In this document: piece after piece, positions 1 to 16,891 of the stretch
How positions within the stretch are numbered: the first letter of the stretch is position 1
How the letters are laid out: the number at the start of each line of letters is the position of its first letter
Assembly (NCBI RefSeq): GCF_000981785.2
Contig: NZ_CP011304.1
Coordinates: 2,160,001 to 2,192,000 of the forward strand
Reading direction: 5' to 3'
Origin: Microcystis aeruginosa NIES-2549
Lineage (GTDB): Bacteria; Cyanobacteriota; Cyanobacteriia; Cyanobacteriales; Microcystaceae
Length of the DNA stretch: 32,000 bases
Position numbers and translations under genes: made by a program
Notes under the pieces: model-generated
Seen by the model: the letters and a program-made list of their open reading frames with translations, nothing else
The model's database searches: none
What the model was told of the DNA's origin: nothing

Positions 1-2381
1 ACTGGTAAACAAAAATAAATCCGAGTTCCTTGAAGCACTTCGCTTTCTAAGCTAATACTACCGCCTAAAAGTTTAATATACTCTTGAGTTAGCATCAACC
101 CCAAACCCGTTCCTTCAATTAAAGGATCAGGATTTTGACCTCGATAAAAAGCGTTAAACAGTAGTTCTTGTTCCGACTGGCTAATCCCGACTCCTGTATC
201 TTCTATCCAAAAATTAAGTTGAGCATTTTCTTGATCTAATTTTTGCAAGGAGACTGTTAAAGAAATGCTTCCCACAGATGTAAACTTAAAGGCATTACTG
301 AGCAAATTAAACAAGATTTGTCGTAACTTAGTTGCATCAACTCGAATTAGGCGAGGACAAGCGGTGAGAAAACTAACCTGAAAATCTAAGTTTTTTATCT
401 CGCTACTAAGCTGAAAAATTGCTTCAATATCTCGAATAAAGTCTAAAAAGTTAAGAGATTGAGGCTGTATTGATAATTTTCCAGCTTCAATTTTAGCTAA
501 GTCTAAAATGTTGGTAATTAATAAAAATAAATTTCTGCTATTTTTTCGCACAATATTGAGGGATTGAGTTAAGTGTTTTGGCAACGCCGGATCATTGACA
601 ACTATGTCAGTAAACCCTAAAATCGCATGAAGGGGTGTTTTTAGCTCATGACTCATATTGGTTAGCAAAATGCTTTTAGCCTGATTGGCGATTTCTGCTT
701 TTTCTTTAGCATCAGCAAGTTCTTCAGTCTGTTTCTTCACTTCTTGTGTTAAGATTTTGTTATAATCTTTCAGAAGTATTTCCGCTTGTTTTCTGTCGGT
801 AATATCTTCAATAATAATCAGAGCAAAGATAATCTCATTGGCTTCGTCAAAAATCGGCTTTCCCAATATCTTAACTACAATACTTTGGTGATTGACTTTA
901 ATAGTTATATCATCTAGAGTAAATGATTCTCCTATTAAAATTTTCTGCATATTTTTCTCAAAAAATTCTAGGCTTGCAGCCAATAAAATATTGCCTTCTT
1001 TGTTGATAAAAATTTGCTGTTTTTCCGAATTATAAACTGTAATACCAATCGGTATTGCTTCCAAAAACTGTCTTAATTGTTGTTCTTGAGACTGAAGTTT
1101 TTTTACATATTCCTTTAGTTGATACGCCATTTTTTTAAAGGCTTGAACTAAGTTTTGCAGTTCAGTAATCGAACTTGCTTTAAGTTTTTTTTGCCAATCT
1201 CCTTCGGACAAGGCTAAGGTTGCTTGACTTAATCGGGTAATCGGTTGAGTAATGTAATAAGCAGAAATTAAACCAATAATAATAGCCATCAATAAAGCTA
1301 AGACAGATAGCAGAAAAGTGAGACGTTGATTTTGCCAAATTTTCCCTAAAATATCAGCCTGTGGAATTACAATAATTGCTAACCATTGCAGTCCATTTTG
1401 TTGCTGGAGTGGAAGTGCTAAGACAAAATACTTTTGAGAGTTGATAACTAATGAAGAAAAATACTGTTTTTCAATTTTTTTTACTGGTAGATTGAGTAAT
1501 GTTTGTGATATCTTTTTGGTGATAAGATTAGGACTTTTAGTTGCCAACAAAGGAACTGCATTGCCATTAACAACTTCTAACTGACTTTGACCATTAGAAG
1601 TAGCAATTAAATAACCATTTTTATCAATAATAAAGACGCTACCCGTGCGCCCAATTTTCAGGGATTGCAAAAATTTATTTAGATAGGACAAATCTACCTG
1701 AATAGATGTTACCCCTAATAATTGAGAACGCTTCCCATTGTAGAGGGGACGAGAGAAGTTTATTACTAAATGTTTTTGAAAAACTTTATGGGCAAATAAG
1801 GGAGTCCATTGCATTTTGCCCGTTTTTATCACCTGGGTGTACCAGGGTCTGTTAGTCACTTTATATCGATTAGCGAGGATTTTGGGATTGCGTTTCTTTT
1901 GATAATTTTCTAGAGAAGAATAACCATAGTAATTATATTGCGTTTTTCTTCCTACTTCCGCTAACCCTTGAAGGATTTGACCTTGTTTGTTATAAGTGTG
2001 ACCGGCTGCACGAAATTCATTGGCTTGATTACTCACCATAAAAGCAGTAAGAAAATCATGGCGATGGTTTCGATACTGTTTGTATAAATAAGAGCCCCAA
2101 GGTTCTAAGTCGTTGAGATTTAAGATTCCTAAATCAATTAAATCTTGATGTTCTTGAGTGAGAGCAATCGGTTTTTCTAAAAAATTGTCCATTTCCCCTT
2201 GCAAGCGATCGCCAATATCTTCTAGCAAGGAAAGTGTTAACAGATTAATCGCTTGCCAAGTGCTGTAGTAAGCCAGCCAACTTATACCGCCGATCACAAT
2301 CATCAACTGCACAACAAAAGGAACCGTCAGAAGGATTTTCAGGGAAAGCCAGCGAGATAGATCAAATTTCATTACCGTCAT
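1..2381 (-). CDS. Membrane sensor histidine kinase (TM, extracytoplasmic Cache-like region, HAMP, PAS, HisKA, HATPase_c). The C-terminus runs off the window.
   Basis: Absent from the ORF track because it is edge-truncated. My own minus-strand translation from ATG 2381 (alternative ATG 2372) reads MTVMKFDLSRWLSLKILLTVPFVVQLMIVIGG... H-box MSHELKTPLHAILGF at ~620-665, N-box NLLSNAFKFT at ~278-310, G-box GTGLGL at ~96-113. I checked the frame as open over ~2160-2381 and at these motif regions; the rest was read through without codon-by-codon verification. Confidence 0.85.
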   Translation of the reverse strand, partial: MTVMKFDLSRWLSLKILLTVPFVVQLMIVIGGISWLAYYSTWQAINLLTLSLLEDIGDRLQGEMDNFLEKPIALTQEHQDLIDLGILNLNDLEPWGSYLYKQYRNHRHDFLTAFMVSNQANEFRAAGHTYNKQGQILQGLAEVGRKTQYNYYGYSSLENYQKKRNPKILANRYKVTNRPWYTQVIKTGKMQWTPLFAHKVFQKHLVINFSRPLYNGKRSQLLGVTSIQVDLSYLNKFLQSLKIGRTGSVFIIDKNGYLIATSNGQSQLEVVNGNAVPLLATKSPNLITKKISQTLLNLPVKKIEKQYFSSLVINSQKYFVLALPLQQQNGLQWLAIIVIPQADILGKIWQNQRLTFLLSVLALLMAIIIGLISAYYITQPITRLSQATLALSEGDWQKKLKASSITELQNLVQAFKKMAYQLKEYVKKLQSQEQQLRQFLEAIPIGITVYNSEKQQIFINKEGNILLAASLEFFEKNMQKILIGESFTLDDITIKVNHQSIVVKILGKPIFDEANEIIFALIIIEDITDRKQAEILLKDYNKILTQEVKKQTEELADAKEKAEIANQAKSILLTNMSHELKTPLHAILGFTDIVVNDPALPKHLTQSLNIVRKNSRNLFLLITNILDLAKIEAGKLSIQPQSLNFLDFIRDIEAIFQLSSEIKNLDFQVSFLTACPRLIRVDATKLRQILFNLLSNAFKFTSVGSISLTVSLQKLDQENAQLNFWIEDTGVGISQSEQELLFNAFYRGQNPDPLIEGTGLGLMLTQEYIKLLGGSISLESEVLQGTRIYFCLP

Positions 2382-2427
2382 CGAGAAACTCGCGAAATAC
2401 AACTCTCGGTTCGGGAATCACTATAGG

Positions 2428-2519
2428 TAGTGTTTCAATGACTGATTAAACCTACCTGTAGTGGTATTAGTTCAACTTATGCCACTACAGGCAGTGGATA
2501 GCTTAATCCAAAAACACTA
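2428..2519. repeat. Nested inverted-repeat element upstream of the kinase gene
   Basis: Perfect 10-bp inverted repeat CCTGTAGTGG (2455-2464) / CCACTACAGG (2482-2491). It sits inside an outer 8-bp inverted repeat TAGTGTTT (2428-2435) / AAACACTA (2512-2519). Confidence 0.4.
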
Positions 2520-2664
2520 TATGTGGAAAATGAGCGAACCGTCAGATACAAGGTATGATAGCTTCTTTTAGATGCGGATGTGGTATTTATTGATCATGAA
2601 GTGCGGAATCTGGAACATAAGACTAATAATCATTCTACTTTCCTCATTTTTGCCAGCCACTCAA

Positions 2665-3111
2665 TTAAACTCTGTAACTGCTTCTAAGGACTATCAAATC
2701 CTGGAGTGTCTCGTAGGGAGTGATGATCGATCGAAGAAAGCCACTTTTAGGGACACTGTGCATCAATTCCCAATCTTCTAATAAACTACTAGCAAAGTAT
2801 AATTGGGCATTCCATGAGCCGAAAGGTTCTTGTTCGAGTTGATCTTCTGTTTCACTTGGAGTTGTGCTTTGAGCATTGCTTATAACCCCCAGATTAACGA
2901 CACCATTATTCGTTAATTGAGGGGAATAGGGGGCAGTAGGTATTACATTACTGGTACTTGTAGAGAATTGACTGCTGCTAACGCTAAAGGTTTGAGTGTA
3001 AAAGTCGGTATCTTCTTTGATGCTGAGATTCGCAACATTATCAAAGTTAACCTTTGAACCGATAACGATTACACAGAAAAAAACTGTCATAATAATCGAC
3101 CAAGCTTCCAT
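2665..3111 (-). CDS. Hypothetical ORF; may be a remnant of a gene disrupted by the adjacent IS fragment
   Basis: 148-aa track ORF with no motif I recognise. Its first ~12 codons overlap the transposase fragment on the opposite strand. Confidence 0.2.
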   Translation of the reverse strand: MEAWSIIMTVFFCVIVIGSKVNFDNVANLSIKEDTDFYTQTFSVSSSQFSTSTSNVIPTAPYSPQLTNNGVVNLGVISNAQSTTPSETEDQLEQEPFGSWNAQLYFASSLLEDWELMHSVPKSGFLRSIITPYETLQDLIVLRSSYRV

Positions 3112-3343
3112 TCATACCAGCGAGGCATTTATGGAGAAACTTGAGGAATGGGAAAAGAAAAACTTGAAAATATTTTGGTTGCCCACTTATTCACCTCATT
3201 TAAATTTAATTGAAATATTATGGAGATTTTTAAAATATGAATGGATTGAATTTAGCGCCTATAAAGACCGAAAGAGCCTCCTCGCTTACGTTAAAAAAGT
3301 GCTGGACAATTTTGGAGGCGAGTATGTAATTAATTTTGCCTAG
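3077..3343 (+). pseudogene. C-terminal fragment of an IS630-family (Tc1/mariner-like DDE) transposase
   Basis: KKTVIIIDQASIHTS...FWLPTYSPHLNLIEILWRFLKYEW matches the IS630 signature (xDNAxxH ... LPxYSPxLNxIExxW). Only about 90 residues are present and no N-terminal HTH or catalytic part lies upstream. Confidence 0.75.
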
Positions 3344-3480: not shown

Positions 3481-4110
3481 TTAAGACATTAAAAATAAAC
3501 GATAAGATTTGCTGTCAATTAAGATATAAATTCCTAGAATAATATAGATAAAAGGACTAATTTTATGTCCGTAGTTTGTAAGCACTTTAGCTATCCTGGG
3601 ATGGGTAATCAAAAAATAGGCTAGGACGCACCAAATCCCCATCATGAGATAAAAAATTATCATGATAATTAAGACGTGCATCGGGGAATTATTGGCAAAA
3701 AGAGAGGTATAGATACCAATATTATCACCACCATTAGCCACTGTTACAGCCACAACTTGATAGGTTTCGGGAGTAATAATCGATCCAGGAGGGGAGGAAT
3801 GATTAAGATCGATCGCTACTGTTTGAATATTCTCATTGTCTGACGAAAAAAGCTGTTTAATCCCAATAATTAGCGGTATAAATCCTAATAGACCAATCCA
3901 TTCTTTAGAAACCAGTAACCCAAATAGTAAACCGAGGGAACTAGCTAGGAGAATGAGGGTAAAACCGAGGTATTGACCGATAATCAGATGTCGAGGTCGA
4001 AAATTAGCATTAAGTCGCGAGAAAAACAACATTAGCACCATCAGATCATCGAGATTTGTGGCTACAAAACTCGTCACGCTAGTAATTAAAAGGGCTACTA
4101 ACCAATTCAT
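3481..4110 (-). CDS. CadD-family cadmium-resistance-type transporter
   Basis: 209 aa, polytopic. The N-terminus ...FVATNLDDLMVLMLFF... and the GGDNIGIY motif are typical of the CadD family as I recall it. Confidence 0.7.
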   Translation of the reverse strand: MNWLVALLITSVTSFVATNLDDLMVLMLFFSRLNANFRPRHLIIGQYLGFTLILLASSLGLLFGLLVSKEWIGLLGFIPLIIGIKQLFSSDNENIQTVAIDLNHSSPPGSIITPETYQVVAVTVANGGDNIGIYTSLFANNSPMHVLIIMIIFYLMMGIWCVLAYFLITHPRIAKVLTNYGHKISPFIYIILGIYILIDSKSYRLFLMS

Positions 4111-4140: not shown

Positions 4141-4716
4141 CTAAATCTCGTAGTGCCAGATTTCCTCCTCTCGTAAAAGAAGACGATGGACGGGAAGACG
4201 TTCCACGGCCCCCTGTTGTTCAAGATGATTAAGTGCGCGGGTAATTGTGACTCTAGTAGTTCCTAATAAGTCAGCGATATCCTGATGAGTTAGACGCACA
4301 TCAATTAATTGTCCGTTACCGGTTTGTTTGCCGAATTGATTGCCTAACCATGACAGTAATTTCAGGACCATAACATCAGTACGTTTGTAGCTACGAATAA
4401 TACTTAGTTCTTGTGCTTGCTGAAGATGAGACAGCAGAATTTCTGCCATTTGATAACTCTCAACTGTGGAAAAGGAAACTGCTTGCACAGGACTAATGCA
4501 CTCAACTTGATAGGGATTGACTCTCTCTAGGGTTTTGCCAACAAAACTGCCGGGTCCCCACAATCCCAAGACGATGAGGGTTCCATCTTCTAACCAGGTG
4601 GAGGTTTTCACGACTCCACTCTCGATTTTCCAGAAATTAGGATTTCTGAGGGGCAAAATTGCCCGATTATCAAAGTGCCAGCGATGGGGGGTTGGTGGTT
4701 GATAGGTAAGCGTCAT
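4141..4716 (-). CDS. Crp/Fnr-family transcriptional regulator
   Basis: 191 aa with an N-terminal cNMP-like barrel and a C-terminal HTH, LTHQDIADLLGTTRVTITRALNHLEQQG. It lies 30 bp upstream of the CadD-like gene on the same strand. Confidence 0.85.
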   Translation of the reverse strand: MTLTYQPPTPHRWHFDNRAILPLRNPNFWKIESGVVKTSTWLEDGTLIVLGLWGPGSFVGKTLERVNPYQVECISPVQAVSFSTVESYQMAEILLSHLQQAQELSIIRSYKRTDVMVLKLLSWLGNQFGKQTGNGQLIDVRLTHQDIADLLGTTRVTITRALNHLEQQGAVERLPVHRLLLREEEIWHYEI

Positions 4717-4873: not shown

Positions 4874-5572
4874 TTATTTCGGGGTGCTAGTCTTCTCCAG
4901 TTCCGTCGTCGCCGAGGAGATCAGTTCTTGCCAAGCTCGATCGCTTTCCTGTAGAGTCTGTTTAACTGCGTCGATGGTCTTTTCCACGCGAGTTTTCAGG
5001 AAAGGGGAAGCATTGTCTTTGAGTCGTTCGGTGTCGTCGGCTAAGATATCGATCGTCTCGGAGGTATTAACGAGGCTCTTTTCTAGGGTAATAAGGTTGT
5101 TTTGCAGGGTTTCACCGAGTTTAGCCCCAGAACTTGTCAACTTTTTCCCTAATTTGCTCACTTTTTCCCCTAGATCGTCAATATTATCTGCTAAGTCCTC
5201 TAGGTTGTCCTGTTGAGCTTCGATAATCTTCTTGTCGAGAGAAGGGGCGGCTAGTTGAGCATTTAGGTCATCGATAGCCGATTTTGTCGCTTGGATGGCT
5301 TTTTCATAGGCAATTTGGGCATCTTCGAGAATTTTTGACCTAGAAACCTCATTTTTTTTCTTAACTGGTTCCACCACAGTGCCACCGGTTGCCGTGGCAC
5401 GGTCGATGACAGCCAACTGTTCGGGAAGTAGCGGCAAGGCGATCGCATTTCCCCTTCCCCCGAGGAGCAAAGTGACAGTTAAGAGGAAAATCAGCAGCCG
5501 GAAAACTTGATTTTTGAGGTTTTTAAAACTCTTATTTCGGTTGATCATAATTTGATTTTCTCCTATATTCAA
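4874..5572 (-). CDS. Secreted or membrane-anchored coiled-coil protein of unknown function
   Basis: 232-aa ORF; the likely start is the second Met (5548). It has a hydrophobic signal/anchor (FRLLIFLLTVTLLLGG...AIA) followed by heptad-like, Lys/Glu/Asp-rich sequence. There is no Met or Cys after residue 9. Confidence 0.65.
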   Translation of the reverse strand: MNIGENQIMINRNKSFKNLKNQVFRLLIFLLTVTLLLGGRGNAIALPLLPEQLAVIDRATATGGTVVEPVKKKNEVSRSKILEDAQIAYEKAIQATKSAIDDLNAQLAAPSLDKKIIEAQQDNLEDLADNIDDLGEKVSKLGKKLTSSGAKLGETLQNNLITLEKSLVNTSETIDILADDTERLKDNASPFLKTRVEKTIDAVKQTLQESDRAWQELISSATTELEKTSTPK

Positions 5573-5863: not shown

Positions 5864-6400
5864 TTAATGAGATGCTGAATTATCCGATGAGTCTATTTCT
5901 TGATTGATCCGAGATATTTTCTTCCGACCTTTAATATATTTGGCTAAAGGTTGTTTTTTCTTCAGTCGTTTAATGCCACTTAAAGTGGAGAGAGTGAATA
6001 AAGTACCCACGAGAACCATCTGCCATAAACCGCAGCCAGAAGCGGCCCCTAATCCTGCTGCTAACCAGATAGTCGCCGCCGAAGTCAAACCTTTTACTTG
6101 TATCTTATTTAGTTCCCGATGGGACTGTTGTAGGATGATTCCCGCCCCTAAAAAACCGACACCAGAAGCGACCCCTTGAATAGTGCGACTGAGGGCATTA
6201 GAAGACGCATAACCCACATCTCCTTCCGCTTGTAGGGGAATCATCACGAACATGGCAGCTCCGAGACTAACGATGATAAAAGTTCTCAATCCAGCCGGAC
6301 GACCGCCTCGCTGTCGGTTATAACCAATCAGACAGCCGACGGCCATAGCCATACTGAGCCGAAAAATAATCGTTTGCCAATCTTCCGAGTCAAAAAACAT
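5864..6400 (-). CDS. MgtC/SapB-family membrane protein
   Basis: 178 aa. RLSMAMAVGCLIGYNRQ...GLRTFIIVSLGAA is characteristic of the MgtC N-terminal domain. Confidence 0.75.
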   Translation of the reverse strand: MFFDSEDWQTIIFRLSMAMAVGCLIGYNRQRGGRPAGLRTFIIVSLGAAMFVMIPLQAEGDVGYASSNALSRTIQGVASGVGFLGAGIILQQSHRELNKIQVKGLTSAATIWLAAGLGAASGCGLWQMVLVGTLFTLSTLSGIKRLKKKQPLAKYIKGRKKISRINQEIDSSDNSASH

Positions 6401-6626: not shown

Positions 6627-7574
6627 TTAGTCGATATCTTCGAGGTCTTTAAACAGGGCCGTGCTGAGGTAACGTTCCCCGAAACTAGGCTGAATCATGA
6701 CGATTAATTTATCTTCGTTTTCGGGTCTTTTGCCCACCTGAATCGCCGCCCATAAAGCAGCCCCGGCCGAAATGCCCGATAGTAGTCCCTCCTGACGAGC
6801 TAACCGTCGCGCGTAGGCGAAAGCCTCTGTATCATCGACGATAATCACCTCATCGATTAATTCCGGTCGGAAAATGGCTGGGATAAAACCGGCGCCGATG
6901 CCTTGGATTTTGTGCGGCCCGGGTGGTCCTCCCGATAAGACGGGACTATTAGAGGGTTCAACTGCGATCGCTTGAAATTGGGGACGACGGGGTTTAATGG
7001 TTTCGGCAATACCGGTAATGGTTCCCCCGGTTCCCACGCCACCGATAACGATATCTACCAGGCCGTCGGTATCGGTCCAGATTTCTTCGGCGGTGGTTTC
7101 TCGGTGAATTTTCGGGTTAGCCGGGTTGCGGAACTGTTGCAAACTATAGGCGTTGGGGATGTTTTCGACTATTTCCTCGGCTCTGGCGATCGCTCCTTTC
7201 ATGCCTTGGCTACCCGGGGTTAATTCTAATTGCGCTCCGTAGGCTTTTAACATCGCCCGTCGTTCTAAACTCATGGTTTCGGGCATAGTCAGGATTAAGC
7301 GATAGCCTTTGGCAGCGGCTACCATGGCCAGGGCGATGCCGGTATTGCCGGAAGTGGGTTCCACCAGAATTGTTTTATCGGGGTGAATTAGTCCGGCGGC
7401 TTCAGCGTCCTCCACCATACTGACCCCGATGCGATCCTTAACCGAGGCGGCGGGGTTCATACTTTCTAGTTTGACGACGATGCGGGCTTTTACTCCCTCT
7501 GCTACTGGGATTCGATTCAGTTGGACTAGGGGAGTCCGTCCTACCAATTGGGTGATGTCTCTTGCGATCGGCAT
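6627..7574 (-). CDS. cysK: Cysteine synthase A (O-acetylserine sulfhydrylase)
   Basis: 315 aa with [13 protein letters not shown], the PLP-lysine context [15 protein letters not shown], and [10 protein letters not shown]. Confidence 0.95.
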
Positions 7575-7664
7575 AATCCCACTTGCTTTATACTTGTTGG
7601 CTATTTTTGATTATATATGTATTTAAGATGTTTTACAATACTTTTTAGATTGGAGTACAGTGCG

Positions 7665-7694
7665 TCGGCGGGGATTATCCCCGTCGATTTTTTT
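7665..7694 (+). terminator. Orphan intrinsic-terminator-like hairpin in the cysK / cpcB intergenic region
   Basis: 10-bp GC-rich stem (7665-7674 / 7678-7687, one G-U pair), 3-nt loop, then T7 (7688-7694). No plus-strand gene lies upstream. Confidence 0.45.
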
Positions 7695-8200
7695 GCCTTG
7701 ATAGTTTCTTTTTGGTATATCAAAGCACAATCGATAAAATCGTCTTGGGAAATTTTTCTCAATTTAGTTAATTATTATTAGTATATAAAAGCACATTTGT
7801 TTAAATAACTTAAAGGAATTATTAGAGAGATGAAAAGAGTGATACTTTTTCTTAGTATAGGGTTACACATTTGGAAAAGTTTTCTGAGATTTATCCTAAA
7901 AAATTATTTTTTTGCTGTTTTTTTAGGAAACAATTTTTAATAAATAAAGGTGAAAATATCGTCTATAAAATAATTTATGGCAAAAACGAGGTGTGTCTAG
8001 GAGCGTCAATAAACGCTAAATTCAATTTAAAAGAATTGTTCCTCGATATACAAAAAATCTGGCCAAGGGAGAGTAAAACTTTTTTCAAGGACGATAGTAT
8101 AGTCCCAAGAAAAAAACTCCTAGATACTTTATCGGAAAAATAAAGAAAAGCCAGAAAATTTACCTCGATATTTTGCCGAAACCAATCATCATTATAGGAG

Positions 8201-8731
8201 ATGAAAACTATGGTGTTAGATGCCTTTGCCAAAGTCGTTTCCCAGGCCGATACCCGCGGGGAATACCTGAGCGAGAATCAAGTCAATGCCCTAATTGCCT
8301 TCGTCAAAGATGGTAATAAACGCGTGGATGTGGTCAATCGTCTTTCCAGTAATTCTTCTGCGATCGTTACCGATGCCGCGCGTAGTTTGTTTTCAGAACA
8401 GCCCGTTTTAGTTGCCCCCGGTGGCAACGCCTATACAAACCGTCGTGCCGCCGCCTGCTTGCGGGATTTGGAAATTATCCTGCGCTACGTTACCTATGCC
8501 ACCTTCACCGGCGATGCCAGCATCCTCGATGATCGCGCCTTGAATGGTCTCCGGGAAACCTACGTCGCCCTAGGAGTTCCGGGTGCTTCTGTTGCGGCCG
8601 GAATTCTCAAGCTCAAAGACGCTTCCCTTGCCCTAGCGGCCGATCCCAACGGGATCACTCGCGGGGATTGCAGTTCTTTACTAGCAGAAGTCGCTTCCTA
8701 CTTCGATCGAGCGGCGGCGGCAGTTTCCTGA
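8201..8731 (+). CDS. cpcB: Phycocyanin beta-subunit paralog, sulfur-depleted (cpcB3-like)
   Basis: ...[15 protein letters not shown]...[25 protein letters not shown]...[31 protein letters not shown] at 8192-8196 favours a start at ATG 8210 or GTG 8213. Its only Cys are the two bilin sites, and there is no internal Met. Confidence 0.93.
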
Positions 8732-8786
8732 TGCTGTGACTTTCTTCTCTCAATCCGATTAAACTTTTGTAGGAGCAATTCCATCG

Positions 8787-9278
8787 ATGACCAAGACACC
8801 TTTAACCGAAGCGGTGGCTACTGCCGATTCCCAAGGCCGTTTTCTCAGCAGTGCAGAATTACAAGTAGCCTTCGGTCGTTTCCGTCAGGCCGCCATCACC
8901 CTAGAAGCGGTAAAAATCCTCGCCCAAAAAGCCCCCAGTTTAGCCCAAGAAGCAGCCAACGCTGTCTATCAAAAATTTCCCTACACCACCCAACTCCAGG
9001 GGCCGAACTATGCCTACGATGAGCGGGGGAAATCCAAGTGCGTTCGCGATATCGGCTACTATATCCGGATTATCACCTATGCCCTCGTGGTAGGCGGTAC
9101 AGGCCCGATCGATGAATATCTAGTCGCCGGTTTGAGTGAAATTAATAGTGCCTTTGAACTATCTCCTAGTTGGTATATCGAAGCCTTAAAATACATCAAA
9201 ACCAATCACGGATTAAGTGGGGATGCTGCTGTAGAAGCTAATTCCTACATCGATTATGTGATCAACGCCCTTAGCTAA
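8787..9278 (+). CDS. cpcA: Phycocyanin alpha-subunit paralog, sulfur-depleted (cpcA3-like)
   Basis: [22 protein letters not shown]...[30 protein letters not shown]...[21 protein letters not shown]...NALS. It has a single Cys (the alpha-84 bilin site) and only the initiator Met. Confidence 0.95.
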
Positions 9279-9324
9279 TTTACGTCAACTTCACGTCAAC
9301 ACAAGCTCAAATCTCCTAAATTCA

Positions 9325-9351
9325 CCTCGGGATGAGCGCCGAGGTTTTTTT
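9325..9351 (+). terminator. Rho-independent terminator of cpcBA
   Basis: CCTCGG-gatgagcg-CCGAGG followed by T7. Confidence 0.75.
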
Positions 9352-9391
9352 GCGTCCGTCTAACTTGGTCGTCGTCGGGAACCTACCCTAA

Positions 9392-9452: not shown

Positions 9453-10451
9453 TTAGACCGCTTTTTCTGGCCCGGTAGCGACGGGCAGATCTGTGGTACT
9501 GTACTCTGTCCAAGAACCCTCATAAATTCGCACCTTGGGATAACCGAGCAGATGTTTGAGGACAATATACTGTAAAGTCGCTTCCCGTCCGGTACTGCAA
9601 CTGACGATAATATTATCCGAGGGCTTGATGTTGCTTTGGGCAAGAATCTTCCTTATTTCGTCTAAAGATTTCAATTTATGAGGATTTTTCAGGGATTCAT
9701 CGGGATTATTCGCTTCCGTAAAAGTCGGCCAGGGTATATTTTTCGCCCCCGGAATATGACCATTTCTCAGCCAGATATCCTGTTTCCCCTGAAAAAGTTC
9801 TTCCGGTCTAGGATCGATAAAAACCACATCTGGTTTGCCGATCAATTTCTCTACTTCTGCTAAATTTACCCGAATCGAGGGATTATCACGGACAGTAAAG
9901 CTCCCGGGTTGATATTTAGGGAATTCTTTAGTTACCTTTTGTTCAGAGCCCTTATAACCCTTAAAACCGCCATCTAAGACCGCCACATCTCGGAAACCCG
10001 AGCGCTCTAGTAAATAGGCCACCATGGTTGCCCCCAAGACATCGCGACCATCGGAATATACTACCACTCGATCGCCATTAGTGATTCCCGCGGCGGCAAA
10101 GAGACTGCCAATTTTATCCTCTTGCCAATATTGAACCGGCAAAAATCCGTTTGGACCACGAAAATTATTGTCGGCTATATTCACCGCTTTCGGTAAATGA
10201 CCGGTGATATATTCTAAAGGATTAATCCGCACATCGAGAATTTTTAACTTCGGATCGTTGAGATTTTGTGCTACCCACCCCGGCGATACAAAGTCTATCT
10301 TAGTCTCAGATTTAGACGTGGCCATCAGGGGCGATGACGGGGCTAAGGTAAAGGTTAAAATGCAGAGGAGAACTAAAGTGAAAAAAGCAAGGGGACGGCT
10401 GTGAAACCGTCCCAGGGATAGACCCTTCCCTTGACGCAGTTTTGGTTTCAT
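9453..10451 (-). CDS. Exported tandem-rhodanese sulfurtransferase (thiosulfate/3-mercaptopyruvate type; RhdA-like)
   Basis: 332 aa with a signal peptide (...FFTLVLLCILTFTLAPSSPLMA), two rhodanese domains and the active-site loop VSCSTGREAT. Confidence 0.85.
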   Translation of the reverse strand: MKPKLRQGKGLSLGRFHSRPLAFFTLVLLCILTFTLAPSSPLMATSKSETKIDFVSPGWVAQNLNDPKLKILDVRINPLEYITGHLPKAVNIADNNFRGPNGFLPVQYWQEDKIGSLFAAAGITNGDRVVVYSDGRDVLGATMVAYLLERSGFRDVAVLDGGFKGYKGSEQKVTKEFPKYQPGSFTVRDNPSIRVNLAEVEKLIGKPDVVFIDPRPEELFQGKQDIWLRNGHIPGAKNIPWPTFTEANNPDESLKNPHKLKSLDEIRKILAQSNIKPSDNIIVSCSTGREATLQYIVLKHLLGYPKVRIYEGSWTEYSTTDLPVATGPEKAV

Positions 10452-10561: not shown

Positions 10562-11230
10562 CTAATTATTAATTTTCTCTTGGGTGTTGATCGCCTTGGG
10601 TGTCTCTAATAACTGTTGCCACCAGATATGAAATAGGAAAGACCAAGCGATCGCTAAAAGCCAAGCGGCAAGGATATCACTAGGAAAGTGAACACCTAAA
10701 TAAAGACGAGTCCAGGCAATAACTAAGACGAAGGGAATCCCCAGTAAAACTACCCCGAAAAACCAGCGCGTTCTCCAAGATAGGATCAGTAAAGAAACCA
10801 CTAACAGGGAACTAAATAAAGCATGACCGCTAGGGAAGGCAAAATCATCGGGTAACGGATAAAATAACTGCCAAAATTGCGGGCGGTTTCGATGAAAAAA
10901 AATCTTGAGATTATAACTAATTGCCCAACCTCCCGCCATAGTTACAAGAAGATAAGCGAACCCATACCAGTATTTTTTTAGGGCAAAAATCAGCAGTAAA
11001 ATTGTTAGTATCGGGGCTACTCCCCAATAAGTACCCAATCCCGTTAGTTTTATGGCCAAAAAATTTAGGTTTAAATTAGTAGTTTGATGAATAGATAGCA
11101 GCAGGAATTTTTCCCAAGCAAATCCTTGGGGATGCTGGTCAATAGCGATCGCTAAATCCGTAAAACTTAGCGATGTTAACAAGATGGCTAAGAAAAATAA
11201 GCTATTGTTTAAGTAGGTTTTGGCAATCAC
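10562..11230 (-). CDS. PAP2-family phosphatase (phosphatidic acid / undecaprenyl-PP phosphatase type)
   Basis: Motifs KIFFHRNRP, PSGHA and TRLYLGVHFPSD. The track ORF extends to 11353. However, a GTG at 11230 overlaps the upstream gene's TGA (GTGA), which is the more likely coupled start. Confidence 0.8.
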   Translation of the reverse strand: MIAKTYLNNSLFFLAILLTSLSFTDLAIAIDQHPQGFAWEKFLLLSIHQTTNLNLNFLAIKLTGLGTYWGVAPILTILLLIFALKKYWYGFAYLLVTMAGGWAISYNLKIFFHRNRPQFWQLFYPLPDDFAFPSGHALFSSLLVVSLLILSWRTRWFFGVVLLGIPFVLVIAWTRLYLGVHFPSDILAAWLLAIAWSFLFHIWWQQLLETPKAINTQEKINN

Positions 11231-11607
11231 GGGGAAAAAGTGGCGATCGAGGATAACAGGGGCATTTCTAAAACCTGAAAATGCAGCAAAGCTAGGATTA
11301 CTAAAGTATAAACTGTCGAGGAAAGTAATCCATTTCTTAATTCTTTTTGCCAATTGCGTTCTTCTTTCTCTCCACCGATTAATTCTTTCGTTCCGAACTG
11401 CATCAGCAGAATTCCCACAACATTAGATAACCAATAACCAACCATGGCCGCCGGCAGAAAAAAATCGGCGTGTAAGCAAGCAATTAAACGACCGAAACCG
11501 TAGGCGATCGGCAGATTAAAAATTAGATCGTTCCACCAACACAGGGGCGATAATAAGTAACCAATCAATACCAAGGTTCCGTTTTTTATTTTGTCCAGTA
11601 GATACAT
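11227..11607 (-). CDS. Small conserved membrane protein of unknown function
   Basis: 126 aa with 3-4 hydrophobic segments, SPLCWWNDLIFNLPIAYGF. Its stop codon overlaps the GTG start of the PAP2 gene. Confidence 0.6.
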   Translation of the reverse strand: MYLLDKIKNGTLVLIGYLLSPLCWWNDLIFNLPIAYGFGRLIACLHADFFLPAAMVGYWLSNVVGILLMQFGTKELIGGEKEERNWQKELRNGLLSSTVYTLVILALLHFQVLEMPLLSSIATFSP

Positions 11608-11847: not shown

Positions 11848-12930
11848 TTAACGCTGAATTTGGTCAAAAATCGCCCCATCAGCGAAGAATTTTTTCTGGA
11901 TCGCATCCCAGCTACCAACCGCAGTATAGGGGAAAAGATTCGACACTTTTGGATATTGTTTACTAAACTCTTTAGCCACATTAGCATTAACGGGACGGAA
12001 ACCCACCTTGGCGAATTCCCGCTGCGCTTCCGGAGTAAAGAGAAATTGGGCAAAAGCTGTCGCTACTTCCCGGGTTTTGCGTTTATCAACTATTTTATCC
12101 ACTACGGCCACAGGCGGATCGATCGAAACATTGACCGGAGGAATAGTATAGGAAAACCCGGTTTCTCCTTTTTGACGGGCCAGAATCACCTCGTTTTCGT
12201 AGTTAAGCAGCACATCCCCCTGATCTTGTTTAAAGAAGACATCGCTGGCTTCCCGGGCATCTTTGGGTAGTACAGGCACGTTTTTATAGACATTGCGGAC
12301 GAAATTGGTCGCTTGTTGTTCGTTGCCTCCATTCCGAGTTACCGATCCCCACAGGGCCAGAAAATTCCACCGTGCCACCCCAGAGGTTTTCGGGTTGGCA
12401 GTAATGACTTTAATCCCCGATTTGGCTAGATCTGGCCAGTTGCGGATTCCTTTGGGATTGCCCTGACGAGTAACTAAAGCTACCACGGAACGAGTGGCGA
12501 TGGCATTATTGGGGAGTTCTTTCTGCCAACCGGGGTTAACTAAACCCGCTTTTTGCAAGCGTTCCACATCGGAACCGATGGCCAAATTTACCACATCTGC
12601 ATCTAATCCGTCGATAACAGCGCGGGTTTGGGAACCAGAGCCGCCATAACTCTGTTTAATCACCACATCCTGTTTTTTCTCTCTTTTCCATTTGTTGACG
12701 AATAGAGGAATGATTTTTGAGTAGGCCGATTGAGTCACCGCGTAGGAAACCAGGGTGATTTCCACGGTTTGTTGTTTAGCTTGCTCTTTATCCGCAGCTG
12801 CCAGCAGATTACTCGATGCTGATAGGGGACTAGAAGCTAGTCCGATTCCCGTTGTGACGACGGCAGCCGTAGCTAGAGAAATAAAAGGTAAGAGGGTTTT
12901 CGGTTTTGGGGATCTAGGATCAGGGATCAC
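11848..12930 (-). CDS. sbpA: Sulfate/thiosulfate ABC-transporter periplasmic binding protein
   Basis: 360 codons with SYGGSGSQTRAVIDGLDADVV and ITANPKTSGVARWNFLALWG. GTG start with AAAGGAG 11 nt upstream. There is no ATG codon or Cys codon anywhere in the frame. Confidence 0.9.
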   Translation of the reverse strand: MIPDPRSPKPKTLLPFISLATAAVVTTGIGLASSPLSASSNLLAAADKEQAKQQTVEITLVSYAVTQSAYSKIIPLFVNKWKREKKQDVVIKQSYGGSGSQTRAVIDGLDADVVNLAIGSDVERLQKAGLVNPGWQKELPNNAIATRSVVALVTRQGNPKGIRNWPDLAKSGIKVITANPKTSGVARWNFLALWGSVTRNGGNEQQATNFVRNVYKNVPVLPKDAREASDVFFKQDQGDVLLNYENEVILARQKGETGFSYTIPPVNVSIDPPVAVVDKIVDKRKTREVATAFAQFLFTPEAQREFAKVGFRPVNANVAKEFSKQYPKVSNLFPYTAVGSWDAIQKKFFADGAIFDQIQR

Positions 12931-13053: not shown

Positions 13054-13290
13054 ATGCAAATAAATCAAGCCATTAATGGCTTGATTAACTCAAAAAAAAT
13101 GGAAATATTCGATTTATACCGCTTAAATGCGCCTTTAAATCTGCCTGAAGCCTCTTTATGCTTCCAGAATAGAGATTTTATTGTCTTTATGGAGAGGAAA
13201 GAATTTTTTAGCCCTCAAAAACCTCTCCCGGGTTCACCGGTGAAGTTAGCTGACCTTAGCAACTATTACCCTAAAATTGAAGCGGTCTAA
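13054..13290 (+). CDS. Hypothetical small ORF
   Basis: 78-aa track ORF with no recognisable motif and no obvious RBS. Confidence 0.2.
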   Translation: MQINQAINGLINSKKMEIFDLYRLNAPLNLPEASLCFQNRDFIVFMERKEFFSPQKPLPGSPVKLADLSNYYPKIEAV

Positions 13291-13357
13291 CGACTTCAAT
13301 CAATAAGCAGGGTGCGTCCCCAAAATCTATTGGTGGAGCAGTAGGACTTGCATTATC

Positions 13358-13555
13358 GCACTGAAACAGTCCAGTAGGGTGTGTTAGCGTTAGCGTAACG
13401 CACGAATTTTGAACATTAGATAAGGTGCGTTACATTTCATTAACGCACCCTACCAGAGCGCACTGAAACAGTCCAGTAGGGTGTGTTAGCGTCAGCGTAA
13501 CGCACGAATTTTGAACATTAGATAAGGTGCGTTACATTTCATTAACGCACCCTAC
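13358..13555 (+). repeat. Tandem duplication (2 x ~96 bp, 102-bp period) of a hairpin-rich REP/MITE-like element
   Basis: Units 13358-13453 and 13460-13555 differ by one base. Each unit contains GCGTTA-gcg-TAACGC and the perfect 9-bp stem GGTGCGTTA-catttcat-TAACGCACC. A partial third head (CTGAAACAGTCCA) lies at ~13590. Confidence 0.85.
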
Positions 13556-13706
13556 AAGATCGGCGATCGCACTAATACACCAAATTAGCTGAAACAGTCC
13601 ACTACCATATCGGCGATCACACTAGTGATCGCGTGTGTCCAAATACCCTTGTGGGGGCAAAATCTACCCTAAATACCGAAAAAGATGCTTTACATCTCAC
13701 CAAAAC

Positions 13707-14093
13707 TTAGCGATTAGGGAAATTGGGAAAGCGAGTGCGGCATCCGCGATTGATCAAGCCATACCATCCCCAAGCGGCACATTCAATCGGGCGAGTCTCT
13801 TGAGGTCGGGAAACAACCGTATAGTCGCAAGAGACATAGCCGTTACCGTCGCTATCTATTGCCTGACAGTTCGCTCCTTTTAGGTCTTCTCTAAGAACGG
13901 AATTAACATGGTCTCTCAGTTGATTTTCGGCAAAACTCCTGCCCAAAAAAATCTGTCCTAGGAAAGAAACGGCGCTGATTGCGAGAATGCCGACAATAAT
14001 AGTATTGACTAAGAGTTCAATTAGGGTGAAACCTTTGTTAGCCTTCTTGTTGGCGATTTTGAGCAGCAGTTTGGTTTTGAAGTTAGCGTTCAT
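13707..14093 (-). CDS. Type IV pilin-like protein (prepilin N-terminal cleavage/methylation domain)
   Basis: 128 aa. A leader MNANFKTKLLLKIANKKANKG is followed by FTLIELLVNTIIVGILAI (G/FTLIE signature). There are four Cys in the C-terminal half. Confidence 0.8.
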   Translation of the reverse strand: MNANFKTKLLLKIANKKANKGFTLIELLVNTIIVGILAISAVSFLGQIFLGRSFAENQLRDHVNSVLREDLKGANCQAIDSDGNGYVSCDYTVVSRPQETRPIECAAWGWYGLINRGCRTRFPNFPNR

Positions 14094-14237
14094 GATTTTT
14101 CCTGAGTACAGGTGTTGGATTTGCTTCTGAACAATAAAACTGTTTCTATTCGTTTATTTAGGCTGAAGAGGCTTAACTATGTGTGAAATTTAAATTTCTT
14201 TACAAAAAGCTGGATGCCAACTATAGCAGTTATCTTA

Positions 14238-14272
14238 GCGTTGGGTTTCATGCTTCAACCCAACCTACGTTC
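14238..14272 (-). repeat. Dispersed 35-bp hairpin repeat; copy 2
   Basis: Exact reverse complement of 3364-3398. Confidence 0.8.
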
Positions 14273-14545
14273 ATCTTATATTTAATTCCACCCACCCACT
14301 TAGGACTTGTATTAGGGAACGCACCCTACAGCGATAGCGTACTGCTACGCAGTGCCTTCGGCATCGCACTGCCCCCCCTAATTGAGCGCCACCAATCGGT
14401 ATGATTCGTAATTATGCCGCAAGCACTGACAATGAGCGGCAAGTCTCTTCTAATATTATTGCCGATCGAGAATGGCTCAGGAAGAGATCGCCAAAATAGT
14501 TTAAAAATCGGCCGAGAATTTCTAGGATAGAAGTAAAGACCATCC

Positions 14546-16891
14546 TTGCCTACTTTTTCCATGATCCTAGCCGCCGAAACTGGACTAAAAACCGCTACTC
14601 TAGACGTAAAAGGCATGAAATGCGCCGGCTGTGTGAGTGCCGTAGAACGACAACTCAGCCAAAATCAAGGGGTAAAATCGGCCCAAGTTAACCTAATCAC
14701 GGAAATTGCCGTGATTGAATACCAACCGGATGCGATCGCACCAGAGCAGTTAGCCGCAAAATTAACCGCGATTGGATTCCCCACCCAACCGCGCAGCTCA
14801 TCGACTCCCCTTTCTCAACAAAATCAACGGCTGCAAAACCAACAAAAAGAACAGCAACAACAATTATACCGATTAGCGATCGCTTGTTGTTTACTGGTTT
14901 TTTCCCTGATTGGTCACTTACACCACATCGGGGGACCAGAAATCCCTATCTTTCAAAGTATTGCTTTTCACTGGACTTTAGCCACCCTAGCCATTTTATT
15001 CCCCGGCCGCGATATTTTCATCGATGGTTGGCGGGGATTACGGCACGGGATGCCAAATATGAACACTCTCGTTAGTTTAGGCACAGGTAGCGCCTATATA
15101 GCCAGTTGTTTGGCTCTTATCTTCCCTAATCTCGGTTTAGAGTGCTTTTTCGATGAACCGGTCATGCTGTTAGGTTTTATTCTCCTCGGACGGACTCTAG
15201 AAGCGCATTCCCGTCATCGCGCAGCCGCAGACTTAGAAGCGCTTACCTCCCTACAACCGGCAGTGGCTCACCTGATTGGTAGTACAGATGACCGTGTGGG
15301 CGTGGCCATTCCCGTGGAACAGCTGCGCGTCGGGGAATGGGTGCGCGTCTTACCCGGGGAAAAAATTCCCGTGGATGGGGAGATTATTCAGGGAAGAACC
15401 ACGGTAGATGAAGCTTTATTAACGGGGGAATCGCTCCCGGTGGTTAAGGAAATGGGAGATCTAGTCATTGCTGGCAGTTTCAATCTCTCCGGTGCGATCG
15501 CCGTGCAAACTCGTCAGGTGGGGACCGATACCACCCTAGCTAAGATTATCGCAGCCGTGGAATCAGCCCAAACTCGCAAGGCCCCGGTACAGAAGATAGC
15601 GGACCGGGTAGCGGGTTATTTTGCCTACGGAGTCATGATAATTGCCCTAATTGTGCTGCTCTTTTGGTATTTTTGGGGAACTAGGCTCTTTCCAGAGGTG
15701 TTAGGGTCAACCACGGGACACCATGAGCTGATTCAACCCACTTCTCCCCTACTTTTGTCCCTAAAATTAGCGATTTCTGTGCTTGTGGTCGCTTGTCCCT
15801 GCGCTCTCGGTTTAGCCACACCGACGGCCCTACTGGTGGGAACCAGTTTAGCAGCCGAACGGGGCATTTTAATTAAAGGGGGTGATGTTTTGGAAACCGT
15901 CTCGCAACTGCAAACGGTGGTTTTTGACAAAACGGGAACCCTTAGCCAAGGTCATCCAGAAATTACCGATTGTTTGAGTTTTTCTATCCTTAATTCCCTG
16001 GAAATTCAACAATTAGCGGCAGTAGTGGAGAGTGGTACTAATCATCCTCTTGCTCAGGCGATTTTAGACGCGGTTACTCCCCCTACTAACCTGACGGGGG
16101 AAGATTTTCAAACTGTGGCCGGATTGGGAGTTTCGGCAAGGGTGCAGGGGTCGAAAATTGTTCTAGGAAATCGGCAATGGTTGGCACAGAACGGCATTAA
16201 AATCGATGAAACTATCTGGGGGATTCAAGAGCTTTTACAAGCGGGTAAAACGGTGATTTATCTGGGGATGGAAGAACAATTACTCGGCGCGATCGCTTTT
16301 CAGGACCGATTGCGTCCCGATGCTCAAACAACCGTGAATCAGTTACAAAAACTCGGTTTAGAGGTGATTTTACTCAGTGGTGATCGCCAAGAAGTGGTGA
16401 CAGCGATCGCTAATAGTTTGGGTATTAGCCAATTTTATGCCGAAGTTGCCCCCACCGAAAAATCGGCCTTAATTGCCGACCTACAGACAAAAGAGGGCAA
16501 AATCGTGGCTATGGTCGGGGATGGTATCAATGATGCTCCCGCACTAGGACAGGCTAACATCGGTATTGCTCTGGCCGGTGGCACGGAAGTGGCCATGGAA
16601 ACGGCTGGGATCGTTTTAATTAGCGATCGCCTAGAGGATGTGGTGCAATCTCTGCATTTAAGTCTGGCTACATGGCAAAAAATCCGACAAAATCTTTTTT
16701 GGGCTTTGGGTTATAATACCTTTGCTATTCCCATTGCCGGTGGTTTATTACTGCCCCGTTGGGGTCTAGCTTTCAGTCCGGCCCTAGCAGCAGCTTTAAT
16801 GGCTTTTAGTTCGGTTATGGTAGTGAGTAATTCCTTGCTTTTACGTCGTCAATTTCCCCCGCTCTCATCGACGCAGGAAAGCGAAAATTAA
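14546..16891 (+). CDS. Copper-translocating P1B-type ATPase (CtaA/PacS class)
   Basis: HMA domain GMKCAGCVSAVERQL, transmembrane CPC motif (VACPCALGLATP), DKTGTLS and GDGINDAP. The track start is TTG 14546; ATG 14561 (MILAAE...) is equally plausible. Confidence 0.93.
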   Translation: MPTFSMILAAETGLKTATLDVKGMKCAGCVSAVERQLSQNQGVKSAQVNLITEIAVIEYQPDAIAPEQLAAKLTAIGFPTQPRSSSTPLSQQNQRLQNQQKEQQQQLYRLAIACCLLVFSLIGHLHHIGGPEIPIFQSIAFHWTLATLAILFPGRDIFIDGWRGLRHGMPNMNTLVSLGTGSAYIASCLALIFPNLGLECFFDEPVMLLGFILLGRTLEAHSRHRAAADLEALTSLQPAVAHLIGSTDDRVGVAIPVEQLRVGEWVRVLPGEKIPVDGEIIQGRTTVDEALLTGESLPVVKEMGDLVIAGSFNLSGAIAVQTRQVGTDTTLAKIIAAVESAQTRKAPVQKIADRVAGYFAYGVMIIALIVLLFWYFWGTRLFPEVLGSTTGHHELIQPTSPLLLSLKLAISVLVVACPCALGLATPTALLVGTSLAAERGILIKGGDVLETVSQLQTVVFDKTGTLSQGHPEITDCLSFSILNSLEIQQLAAVVESGTNHPLAQAILDAVTPPTNLTGEDFQTVAGLGVSARVQGSKIVLGNRQWLAQNGIKIDETIWGIQELLQAGKTVIYLGMEEQLLGAIAFQDRLRPDAQTTVNQLQKLGLEVILLSGDRQEVVTAIANSLGISQFYAEVAPTEKSALIADLQTKEGKIVAMVGDGINDAPALGQANIGIALAGGTEVAMETAGIVLISDRLEDVVQSLHLSLATWQKIRQNLFWALGYNTFAIPIAGGLLLPRWGLAFSPALAAALMAFSSVMVVSNSLLLRRQFPPLSSTQESEN

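Follow-up and report, generated by a model that had tools for sequence, protein, structure and literature searches.

A phycocyanin gene pair stripped of methionine and cysteine in a sulfur-acquisition island of Microcystis aeruginosa, probably a sulfur-sparing paralog

The cpcB2A2 pair and its sulfur content

The 32,000-nucleotide stretch of the Microcystis aeruginosa NIES-2549 genome analyzed here (the window; contig NZ_CP011304.1, positions 2,160,001 to 2,192,000, with coordinates counted from its first letter) carries a pair of phycocyanin genes, cpcB2 and cpcA2, whose products contain almost no methionine (Met) or cysteine (Cys). The gene cpcB2 (8210..8731, plus strand; MAE_51680 in strain NIES-843) encodes a C-phycocyanin beta subunit of 173 amino acids, and cpcA2 (8787..9278, plus strand; MAE_51670) encodes an alpha subunit of 163 amino acids. 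Both products matched PF00502 and scored above the trusted cut-offs of the equivalog models of their subunits, CpcB2 with 285.5 bits against TIGR01339 (C-phycocyanin beta; cut-off 279.3) and CpcA2 with 285.9 bits against TIGR01338 (C-phycocyanin alpha; cut-off 269.45). The closest solved structures were also C-phycocyanins (1cpc_B for CpcB2, E=1.7e-82; 1gh0_A for CpcA2, E=7e-82). The gene order, beta then alpha, together with both scores identifies the two genes as encoding C-phycocyanin subunits. The bilin-attachment Cys residues alpha-84, beta-82, and beta-153 (canonical numbering) were kept, with KSKCVRD, AACLRD, and GDCSS aligned to the canonical Cys, and the GGNAYT motif was retained in CpcB2.

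The mechanical open reading frame (ORF) of cpcB2 spans 8201-8731 on the plus strand, and the original prediction took 8201 as its start. The true beta start is almost certainly the ATG at 8210 (MVLDAF...) instead, because the ribosome-binding AGGAG ahead of cpcB2 lies at 8196-8200 and because, in the alignment with Pannus, ATGGTG at 8210 is conserved and the ATG at 8201 is replaced by ATT. The Microcystis protein on record for CpcB2 is likewise the 173-amino-acid form. The recorded proteins, named 'MULTISPECIES phycocyanin subunit [Microcystis]', are BAG04990.1 for the CpcB2 family and BAG04989.1 for CpcA2 (MAE_51670 of NIES-843). Across Microcystis, the exact CpcB2 protein was present on 933 contigs and the exact CpcA2 protein on 501 contigs. 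Exact CpcA2 was indexed in 1109 blocks of the collection, with the same neighbourhood at six listed places (six NCBI assemblies), and the genome scan gave 100% matches in three Microcystis records.

Downstream of cpcA2, an intrinsic-terminator-like hairpin on the plus strand (9324..9352; stem 9324-9345), with a 7-bp stem that includes five G-C pairs, an 8-nt loop, and a run of seven T, closes the cpcB2-cpcA2 bicistron. The gene after it is a convergent rhodanese gene (9453-10451, minus strand), and no phycobilisome (PBS)-linker gene was found within 10 kb of cpcB2A2 in six Microcystis genomes. These results agree with the original prediction of a stand-alone bicistron with its own terminator and without linker genes. 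The Microcystis pair is thus without the dedicated sulfur-free rod-linker genes that lie downstream of cpcA in operons of the cpc3 type, called after the cpc3 operon of strain PCC 7601.

When read from 8210, CpcB2 has no internal Met and only two Cys, Cys83 (AACLRD) and Cys154 (RGDCSS); an extra Met appears only in the reading from 8201. CpcA2 contains Met1 and Cys85 (KSKCVRD) only, with no internal Met. As in cpc3-type phycocyanin, both subunits have been stripped of Met and Cys except for the initiator and the chromophore Cys, and the residue counts are those that had been predicted for this pair.

As the canonical reference we used the cpcBA pair of a metagenome contig (L088), which was retrieved with a Microcystis PC-IGS probe sequence and whose canonical sequences had no exact entry in the protein collection. 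The gene order on L088 (cpcB, cpcA, rod linker, further genes, ddl) agrees with MAE_24450 to 24510 of NIES-843. The canonical and low-sulfur loci were linked through the NIES-843 tables and synteny, and the sequences compared come from different assemblies. In these tables, a second set consisting of MAE_24450 (beta), MAE_24460 (alpha), and MAE_24480 (rod linker) stands beside MAE_51670/51680 (PMC3720943, Harke and Gobler 2013), indicating paralogy of the cpc3 kind. Another protein considered as Microcystis CpcB1 (P0120), the only canonical-type one among the top 120 matches, was rejected since it lies on an uninformative 916-bp metagenome contig.

Canonical CpcB1 has six internal Met and three Cys, and CpcA1 has three internal Met and two Cys, versus no internal Met and two Cys in CpcB2 and no internal Met and one Cys in CpcA2. 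The identity between the paralogs was 72% for beta and 75% for alpha, and the nine internal Met and two Cys were swapped for L, I, V, A, or F, all of which are conservative changes. Every substitution that the original prediction had named relative to canonical C-phycocyanins holds against L088, namely the RRMAACLRDM region, EDRCLNGL to DDRALNGL, KMK to KLK, TTQMQG to TTQLQG, and TYCLV to TYALV. A canonical cpcBA-linker operon therefore exists in the same species, and, with initiators included, its alpha-beta pair holds 16 sulfur atoms versus 5 in cpcB2A2. The canonical Microcystis CpcC contains only two internal Met and one Cys, and an (alpha-beta)6-linker disc goes from ~100 sulfur atoms to ~34 with CpcB2A2 and no new linker.

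The N-termini also differ. Sulfur-free beta subunits start with MV(L/Q)DAF and alpha subunits with M(S/T)KTPL, whereas the canonical forms are M(F/L/Y)DAF and MKTPL. The extra small residue after Met1 (window 8210-8215 and 8787-8792) is Val in beta and Thr in alpha, with Thr or Ser across the clade of sulfur-free pairs described below, and canonical alpha has Lys there. In 115 sulfur-free clusters, beta position 2 was V in 113, T in one, and A in one; canonical clusters had F, Y, or L. Methionine aminopeptidase can remove Met1 when the residue at position 2 is small, but not when it is bulky. By this rule, Met1 removal is expected because the residue at position 2 is small, and sulfur-free subunits in their mature form may thus be entirely devoid of Met. 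Removal of Met1, enabled by Val2 in beta and Thr2 in alpha, would lower the content to ~22 sulfur atoms per disc.

Descent and operon layouts of sulfur-free pairs

The distribution of the pattern was assessed with protein clusters at 90% identity, using the 120 clusters nearest to CpcB2 and the 120 nearest to canonical CpcB1. In the first set, 117/120 clusters had no internal Met and exactly two Cys. In the second set, all 120 clusters had 4-7 internal Met and 3-4 Cys, and the sulfur-free pattern was found in 0/120. The pattern occurs in no fewer than 115 protein clusters, which span many orders of cyanobacteria, the hosts being Pannus, Cyanothece PCC 7425, Gloeothece verrucosa, Chroococcus, Chroococcidiopsis, Fischerella, Calothrix, Tolypothrix PCC 7910, Fortiea, Leptolyngbya boryana, Kovacikia, and others. 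No internal Met has arisen in the 115 diverged sulfur-free beta clusters. A plasmid-borne sulfur-free pair was seen only on a 1.2-Mb Kovacikia replicon, which is no real evidence for mobility.

A neighbour-joining tree was built from the concatenated subunits of 89 cpcB-cpcA pairs from 80 genome loci plus L088, with 200 bootstraps and with all 30 alignment columns holding any Met or Cys masked; the PCC 7601 sequence was not in the tree. Even so masked, 13 sulfur-free pairs formed one clade in 168/200 bootstraps, and Microcystis and Pannus were sisters in 200/200. The clade takes in two pairs with sulfur-free linker genes (L017 and L035), indicating that the Microcystis pair shares descent with linker-bearing sulfur-free pairs. 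Local convergence from the canonical Microcystis copy was rejected on the basis of this tree. On these distances, the Microcystis pair is a member of an old paralog lineage, and a recent duplication within Microcystis with convergence to the pattern does not account for it, because it is nearer to the sulfur-free pairs of Fischerella and Calothrix (0.15-0.21) than to its own canonical pair (0.285). The original prediction had called the pair analogous to PCC 7601 cpc3 and had pointed to a phylogeny against other cpcBA paralogs; the relation that emerged from the phylogeny is homology rather than analogy, since the pair falls in one clade with sulfur-free-linker pairs after Met and Cys were masked. 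Between Microcystis and Pannus, the ratio of nonsynonymous to synonymous substitution (dN/dS) was 0.05 for beta and 0.04 for alpha, with dS >1 and saturating. Judged by these ratios, cpcB2A2 is under strong purifying selection.

A partly sulfur-reduced form was also observed, mostly in Nostoc (L019-L022, L027, L028, L030, L038, L050, L072, and L074). These Nostoc-type pairs have a 173-amino-acid beta subunit starting with MVLDAF..., with 1-3 internal Met and three Cys in beta and 0-1 Met and one Cys in alpha, and they were placed among canonical pairs in the masked tree.

Two operon layouts were found. Calothrix NIES-2100 (L100) has two rod-linker genes and cpcD behind its sulfur-free pair, which is the cpcB3A3-H3-I3-D3 layout of PCC 7601. 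Linker genes also lie 3' of the pair in L011, L016, L017, and L035, with Pfam confirmation for L011, L017, and L035. Linkers with no internal Met and no Cys were present in L100, L017, and L035 and as one of the two in L011; the linkers of L016 are not sulfur-free. Stand-alone pairs were found in Microcystis, Pannus, Cyanothece PCC 7425, Gloeothece verrucosa, Leptolyngbya boryana, and Fischerella PCC 7414, and further ones in Pantanalinema, two Calothrix strains (PCC 7103 and HK-06), and L018. In an Aulosira metagenome-assembled genome (L017 8001-15197) and in Leptolyngbya FACHB-321 (L024 7992-12780), the sulfur-free pair and a canonical cpcBA-linker operon are convergent and at most ~6 kb apart.

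Most of the stand-alone pairs have sulfur genes as neighbours. The pair of Pannus lies beside cysK, a Cys/Met-metabolism pyridoxal phosphate enzyme, PAP2, DUF7980, and sbpA, and that of Cyanothece PCC 7425 beside PAPS reductase, Cad, a Crp-family regulator, and a rhodanese. The neighbours are an SsuA-like binding protein and TauD in Leptolyngbya boryana, an SsuA-like binding protein in Fischerella, a rhodanese and a YeeE-type sulfur transporter in Calothrix HK-06, and sbpA in L018. The pair of Calothrix PCC 7103 adjoins a CysA-like ABC ATPase, with an inositol-monophosphatase-family protein downstream that, from its Pfam family match, may be CysQ-like. An association test was carried out with the window cysK, rhodanese, and sbpA as the only probes, counting a homolog within 8 kb at 15 independent sulfur-free and 65 other cpcBA loci. 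Such a homolog was beside 4/15 sulfur-free loci versus 0/65 other loci (Fisher p=8.6e-4). In the original prediction, a linker-less pair in a sulfur neighbourhood was an arrangement not known to have been described in a unicellular cyanobacterium. However, it is peculiar neither to Microcystis nor to unicellular hosts, since it is present again in Pannus, Cyanothece PCC 7425, Leptolyngbya boryana, Fischerella PCC 7414, Calothrix PCC 7103, and Calothrix HK-06, and on these gene neighbourhoods it is common for sulfur-free pairs to lie in sulfur islands without linker genes.

The sulfur island, its intergenic region and expression

In the window, the pair lies among sulfur genes, as had been predicted, with cysK, a rhodanese gene whose product has a signal peptide, and sbpA all confirmed on the minus strand. 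The cysK gene (6627..7574; MAE_51690) is divergent from cpcB2 and encodes cysteine synthase A without any Cys (TIGR01139, 456.8 bits). The convergent rhodanese gene (9453..10451; MAE_51650) encodes a double rhodanese with an N-terminal signal sequence and two PF00581 stretches, recorded as 'thiosulfate sulfurtransferase precursor', and rhodanese homologs adjoin sulfur-free cpcBA in Cyanothece PCC 7425 and Calothrix HK-06. It is followed by a PAP2-family phosphatase gene (10562..11353, minus strand; MAE_51640), whose product has one internal Met and no Cys, and by a DUF7980 gene (11227-11607) that overlaps it; both are conserved island members in Microcystis and Pannus. The sbpA gene (11848..12930; MAE_51610) encodes a sulfate-binding protein of 360 amino acids with no internal Met and no Cys (TIGR00971, 279.8 bits).

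On the other side of cysK, the minus strand carries genes for a CadD-family transporter of cadmium resistance (3481-4110; MAE_51730), a Crp/Fnr-family transcriptional regulator with weak PtrA/NtcA-family matches only (4141..4716; MAE_51720), a hypothetical protein (4874-5572) that in other strains has 224 amino acids and no Met or Cys after Met1, and MgtC/SapB (5864-6400). The Cad and Crp genes are paired also in Cyanothece PCC 7425, and MgtC was also found in a Pseudanabaena plasmid sulfur module and in Pantanalinema L013. The NIES-843 numbering, MAE_51610, 51640, 51650, 51670, 51680, 51690, 51720, and 51730, follows the gene order of the window (PMC3720943).

The island varies among strains. 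Insertion sequence (IS) elements were seen in island neighbours in L003 (10700-11950) and in L002 and L005 (~13200-14700), the rhodanese is truncated in CP046058, and sbpA is replaced by transposases in two genomes. At the left end of the window (1-3343), an AT-rich stretch of 2.5 kb (32-36% GC) without any ORF >=60 amino acids is followed by an IS630-like transposase fragment (3017-3343). Other strains have a Lactamase_B / NAD_binding_9 gene and DUF6887/DUF6888 genes at this position, and for that reason the stretch looks like a degraded one. Far from the pair, an LptD-like outer-membrane protein (DUF3769 + LptD_N; 797 amino acids; 29054-31447, plus strand), encoded beside lptB/lptF-G-like genes, has one internal Met and no Cys; this is probably the composition of an ordinary outer-membrane protein, unrelated to the sulfur island.

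The divergent cysK/cpcB2 intergenic region (7575..8209, no strand assigned) contains three direct copies of GTATA-N6-CAC, a block conserved in Pannus, and the AGGAG. The copies lie on the plus strand at 7715-7728, 7781-7794, and 7855-7868, with spacings of 66 and 74 nt, and are the only three in the 32-kb window versus 0.38 expected, a generous statistic since the motif was defined post hoc. In Pannus (L010), three such sites lie 366-669 nt upstream of cpcB, matching Microcystis in number and position, and the block shared with Pannus at ~7960-7985 reads CTATAAAAT.ATT.ATGG. The motif was upstream of 0/76 non-sulfur-free pairs, and among the other sulfur-free pairs there was a single isolated match, in L024. 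An NtcA/Crp-type site has the shape GTA-N8-TAC, to which GTATA-N6-CAC, of the shape GTA-N8-CAC, is close. The GTA-N8-CAC repeats are a candidate site of the Crp-family regulator of the island, their function being conjecture. An Rfam scan of the window found no known RNA element and no riboswitch.

The Crp-family protein (4141-4716) was 36% identical to the product of the Crp gene that lies beside Cad upstream of the sulfur-free cpcBA of Cyanothece PCC 7425, and 39% identical to the Crp encoded between cysE-cysK and cysA on a Pseudanabaena plasmid. The latter module, on the plasmid NZ_AP017563.1 of Pseudanabaena sp. ABRG5-3 (49348-63881; L102), comprises an Rrf2 regulator, cysE, cysK, Crp/Fnr, cysA, a sulfurtransferase, MgtC/SapB, TauE/SafE, and PAP2, and has the same families as the Microcystis island without phycocyanin. 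These gene families thus travel together, and the Crp-family gene is a reasonable candidate for a CysR-like regulator because its homologs sit in sulfur clusters of two other genera. A search of the plasmid collection with the Crp-family protein gave no match to pANL, the CysR plasmid.

Published RNA-seq tables of NIES-843 give the expression of both phycocyanin sets. In the replete control, the normalised counts were 8.3 for cpcB2 and 11.9 for cpcA2, and 55,722 for cpcB1 and 69,078 for cpcA1 (PMC3720943), indicating that cpcB2A2 is essentially off in sulfur-replete culture. In low phosphate, cpcB2 rose 5.6-fold and cpcA2 3.8-fold, together with cysK (3.1-fold), the Crp-family regulator (4.5-fold), sbp (2.0-fold), and CadD (2.0-fold), and cpcB1A1 fell 7-9-fold; the authors also stated that five of seven sulfate-transporter genes were up (PMC3720943). 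The pair is therefore expressed conditionally with part of the island, the treatment being phosphorus and not sulfate.

Interpretation, alternative explanations and known systems

According to the above results, we consider it likely that cpcB2A2 encodes a complete and functional C-phycocyanin, reduced to the minimal sulfur content of three bilin-binding Cys and two initiator Met, which takes the place of the bulk phycocyanin CpcB1A1 under certain conditions; it would be made at sulfur shortage and assembled on the existing linkers. Going by composition, descent, and neighbourhood, the reading of cpcB2A2 as a sulfur-sparing phycocyanin is well supported. A sulfur-sparing paralog of the PCC 7601 cpc3 kind was the core of the original prediction, and the separate sulfur-rich operon, the shared clade, the sulfur island, and the near-silence in replete culture all bear it out. 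With ample sulfate, cpcB2A2 is essentially off, as seen in replete culture. When sulfur demand exceeds supply, its transcription would start in the divergent region between cysK and cpcB2 and would accompany that of the surrounding island (sbpA and cysK among others), probably under the control of the Crp-family, CysR-like regulator encoded in the island. Bilins would be attached to the new subunits by the normal lyases, and the new subunits would be assembled on the existing rod linkers. Dedicated linker genes would not be needed because the canonical rod linkers of Microcystis are already sulfur-poor.

Several results weigh against this reading. The only recorded induction is that by phosphorus limitation, and it is modest, with ~46 counts, ~170-fold under the cpcB1 value of that treatment; the searchable literature yielded no experiment on Microcystis under sulfate limitation. 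Transcripts of the rhodanese and PAP2 genes were slightly down in low phosphate (PMC3720943), and because they fell while cpcB2A2, cysK, and sbp rose, the island is not one tight regulon. Upstream of the sulfur-free pairs, no motif common to them across lineages was found, and a k-mer search there gave only the ribosome-binding region, which is also present in canonical pairs. The codon bias of cpcB2A2 is intermediate (Nc 45; cpcB1A1 has 37 and bulk genes have 52.5). In L005 (GCA_050500235.1; L005 7815-9945), cpcB2 is split by an ISAZ013-type transposase, which indicates that some lineages, at least, can do without the pair. Finally, a lack of internal Met together with a single Cys is also seen in some canonical alpha subunits of Nostocales, so the alpha pattern alone is not diagnostic and only the beta pattern or the whole pair is.

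In a first alternative, cpcB2A2 is a general nutrient-stress or phosphorus-linked paralog, for example in a regulon tied to sulfolipid substitution under phosphorus limitation. Low phosphorus is the sole treatment with measured induction, and sulfate-transporter genes rose alongside. But the induction was small and coincided with genes that signal a raised sulfur demand, so that low phosphorus may act via sulfur status. In addition, the protein sequence saves neither phosphorus nor nitrogen, and the neighbours across lineages are sulfur genes and not phosphorus genes. We regard this explanation as improbable.

Marginally less probable still is an oxidation-resistant phycocyanin, made not to save sulfur but for conditions of strong light or peroxide stress such as those of surface scums. 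Met and Cys are the most easily oxidised residues, and a sequence free of both fits oxidation resistance equally well. The induction under a stress other than sulfur shortage, low phosphorus, and the additional roles of cysK and sulfurtransferases in thiol/redox homeostasis also fit. However, in many lineages the pairs adjoin sulfate and sulfonate uptake genes (sbpA, CysA-like ATPase, TauD, SsuA-like, PAPS reductase) rather than antioxidant genes, and the periplasmic neighbour SbpA is equally free of Met and Cys, which fits sulfur economy. Furthermore, the clade holds operons with the layout of PCC 7601 cpc3, and the PCC 7601 phycocyanin is sulfate-responsive according to the summary in PMC4357790. 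A redundant, largely silent duplicate without present function, kept by chance or being lost, would explain the near-background expression in standard culture, the interrupted cpcB2 of L005, and the IS elements in island neighbours of L002, L003, and L005, but is very hard to reconcile with a dN/dS of 0.04-0.05 (at saturating dS), the lack of internal Met in all 115 diverged clusters, the exact proteins on 933 (CpcB2) and 501 (CpcA2) contigs across Microcystis, the intact bilin-binding residues, and scores over the trusted cut-offs of both equivalog models.

A more specific form of the sulfur-sparing reading is possible, although we hold it with considerable doubt. The linker-less pair would be cargo of a compact, partly exchanged sulfur-stress island (Crp/CysR-like regulator, cysK, periplasmic sulfurtransferase, sbpA, PAP2, MgtC, Cad) with its own regulator acting via GTA-N8-CAC, and the Val/Thr that follows Met1 would add to the sulfur economy at a second level, not remarked on before, by yielding a mature antenna protein free of Met. 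If this is true, sulfate would be an overlooked control on the pigment composition and bloom fitness of Microcystis in soft low-sulfate lakes.

Microcystis is the main toxic bloom-former of fresh waters, in which sulfate can be scarce, and phycocyanin, one of the proteins it makes in greatest abundance, is what optical bloom monitoring is based on. With a silent spare phycocyanin of minimal sulfur content, the organism would save about two thirds to three quarters of the rod sulfur, a concrete mechanism of acclimation, and MAE_51680/51670 are possible marker genes for sulfur stress in field metatranscriptomes. In the searchable literature, which does not cover Gutu et al. 2011, no paper linking Microcystis cpcB2A2 to sulfur was found, and an earlier mention of homologs is possible. 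The principle has been known since 1989; what our comparison adds, as the alignments and gene neighbourhoods suggest, is a large and old sulfur-free lineage that extends across orders and has two operon layouts. The textbook single-organism case of elemental sparing, PCC 7601, would then belong to this lineage.

The sulfur-limitation phycocyanin of PCC 7601 was described by Mazel and Marliere 1989, with physiological confirmation by Gutu et al. 2011, according to the summary in PMC4357790. Like PCC 7601 cpc3 (cpcB3A3H3I3D3, PC3; Tolypothrix/Fremyella/Calothrix), the Microcystis pair encodes subunits stripped of all Met and Cys but the initiator and bilin Cys, and it coexists with a canonical sulfur-rich cpcBA. 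Unlike cpc3, it is a two-gene unit with its own terminator and no linker genes, and it lies inside a sulfur-acquisition island (cysK, rhodanese, sbpA, Crp regulator). Its host is unicellular and bloom-forming, and the sulfate regulation established for PC3 is a prediction for the Microcystis pair. The canonical Microcystis operon (cpcB1-cpcA1-cpcC, the 'PC-IGS' marker locus) is of the same family, with three chromophore sites and near-identical length, but differs from cpcB2A2 in having 16 instead of 5 sulfur atoms per pair, no extra small residue after Met1, rod-linker genes that follow, and ~6,000-fold higher expression in replete culture. Proteins of sulfur assimilation were reportedly found to be sulfur-poor by Baudouin-Cornu and colleagues in 2001, and Microcystis SbpA and several island neighbours are nearly sulfur-free in the same way. 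Laudenbach and Grossman are said to have described in 1991 the sulfur-regulated genes of Synechococcus PCC 7942 and their Crp-family regulator CysR. Like such CysR-type sulfur-stress clusters and the Pseudanabaena plasmid module, the cysK/rhodanese/sbpA cluster of Microcystis has a Crp-family regulator within it; unlike the known sulfur-stress clusters, it also has a pair of light-harvesting proteins.

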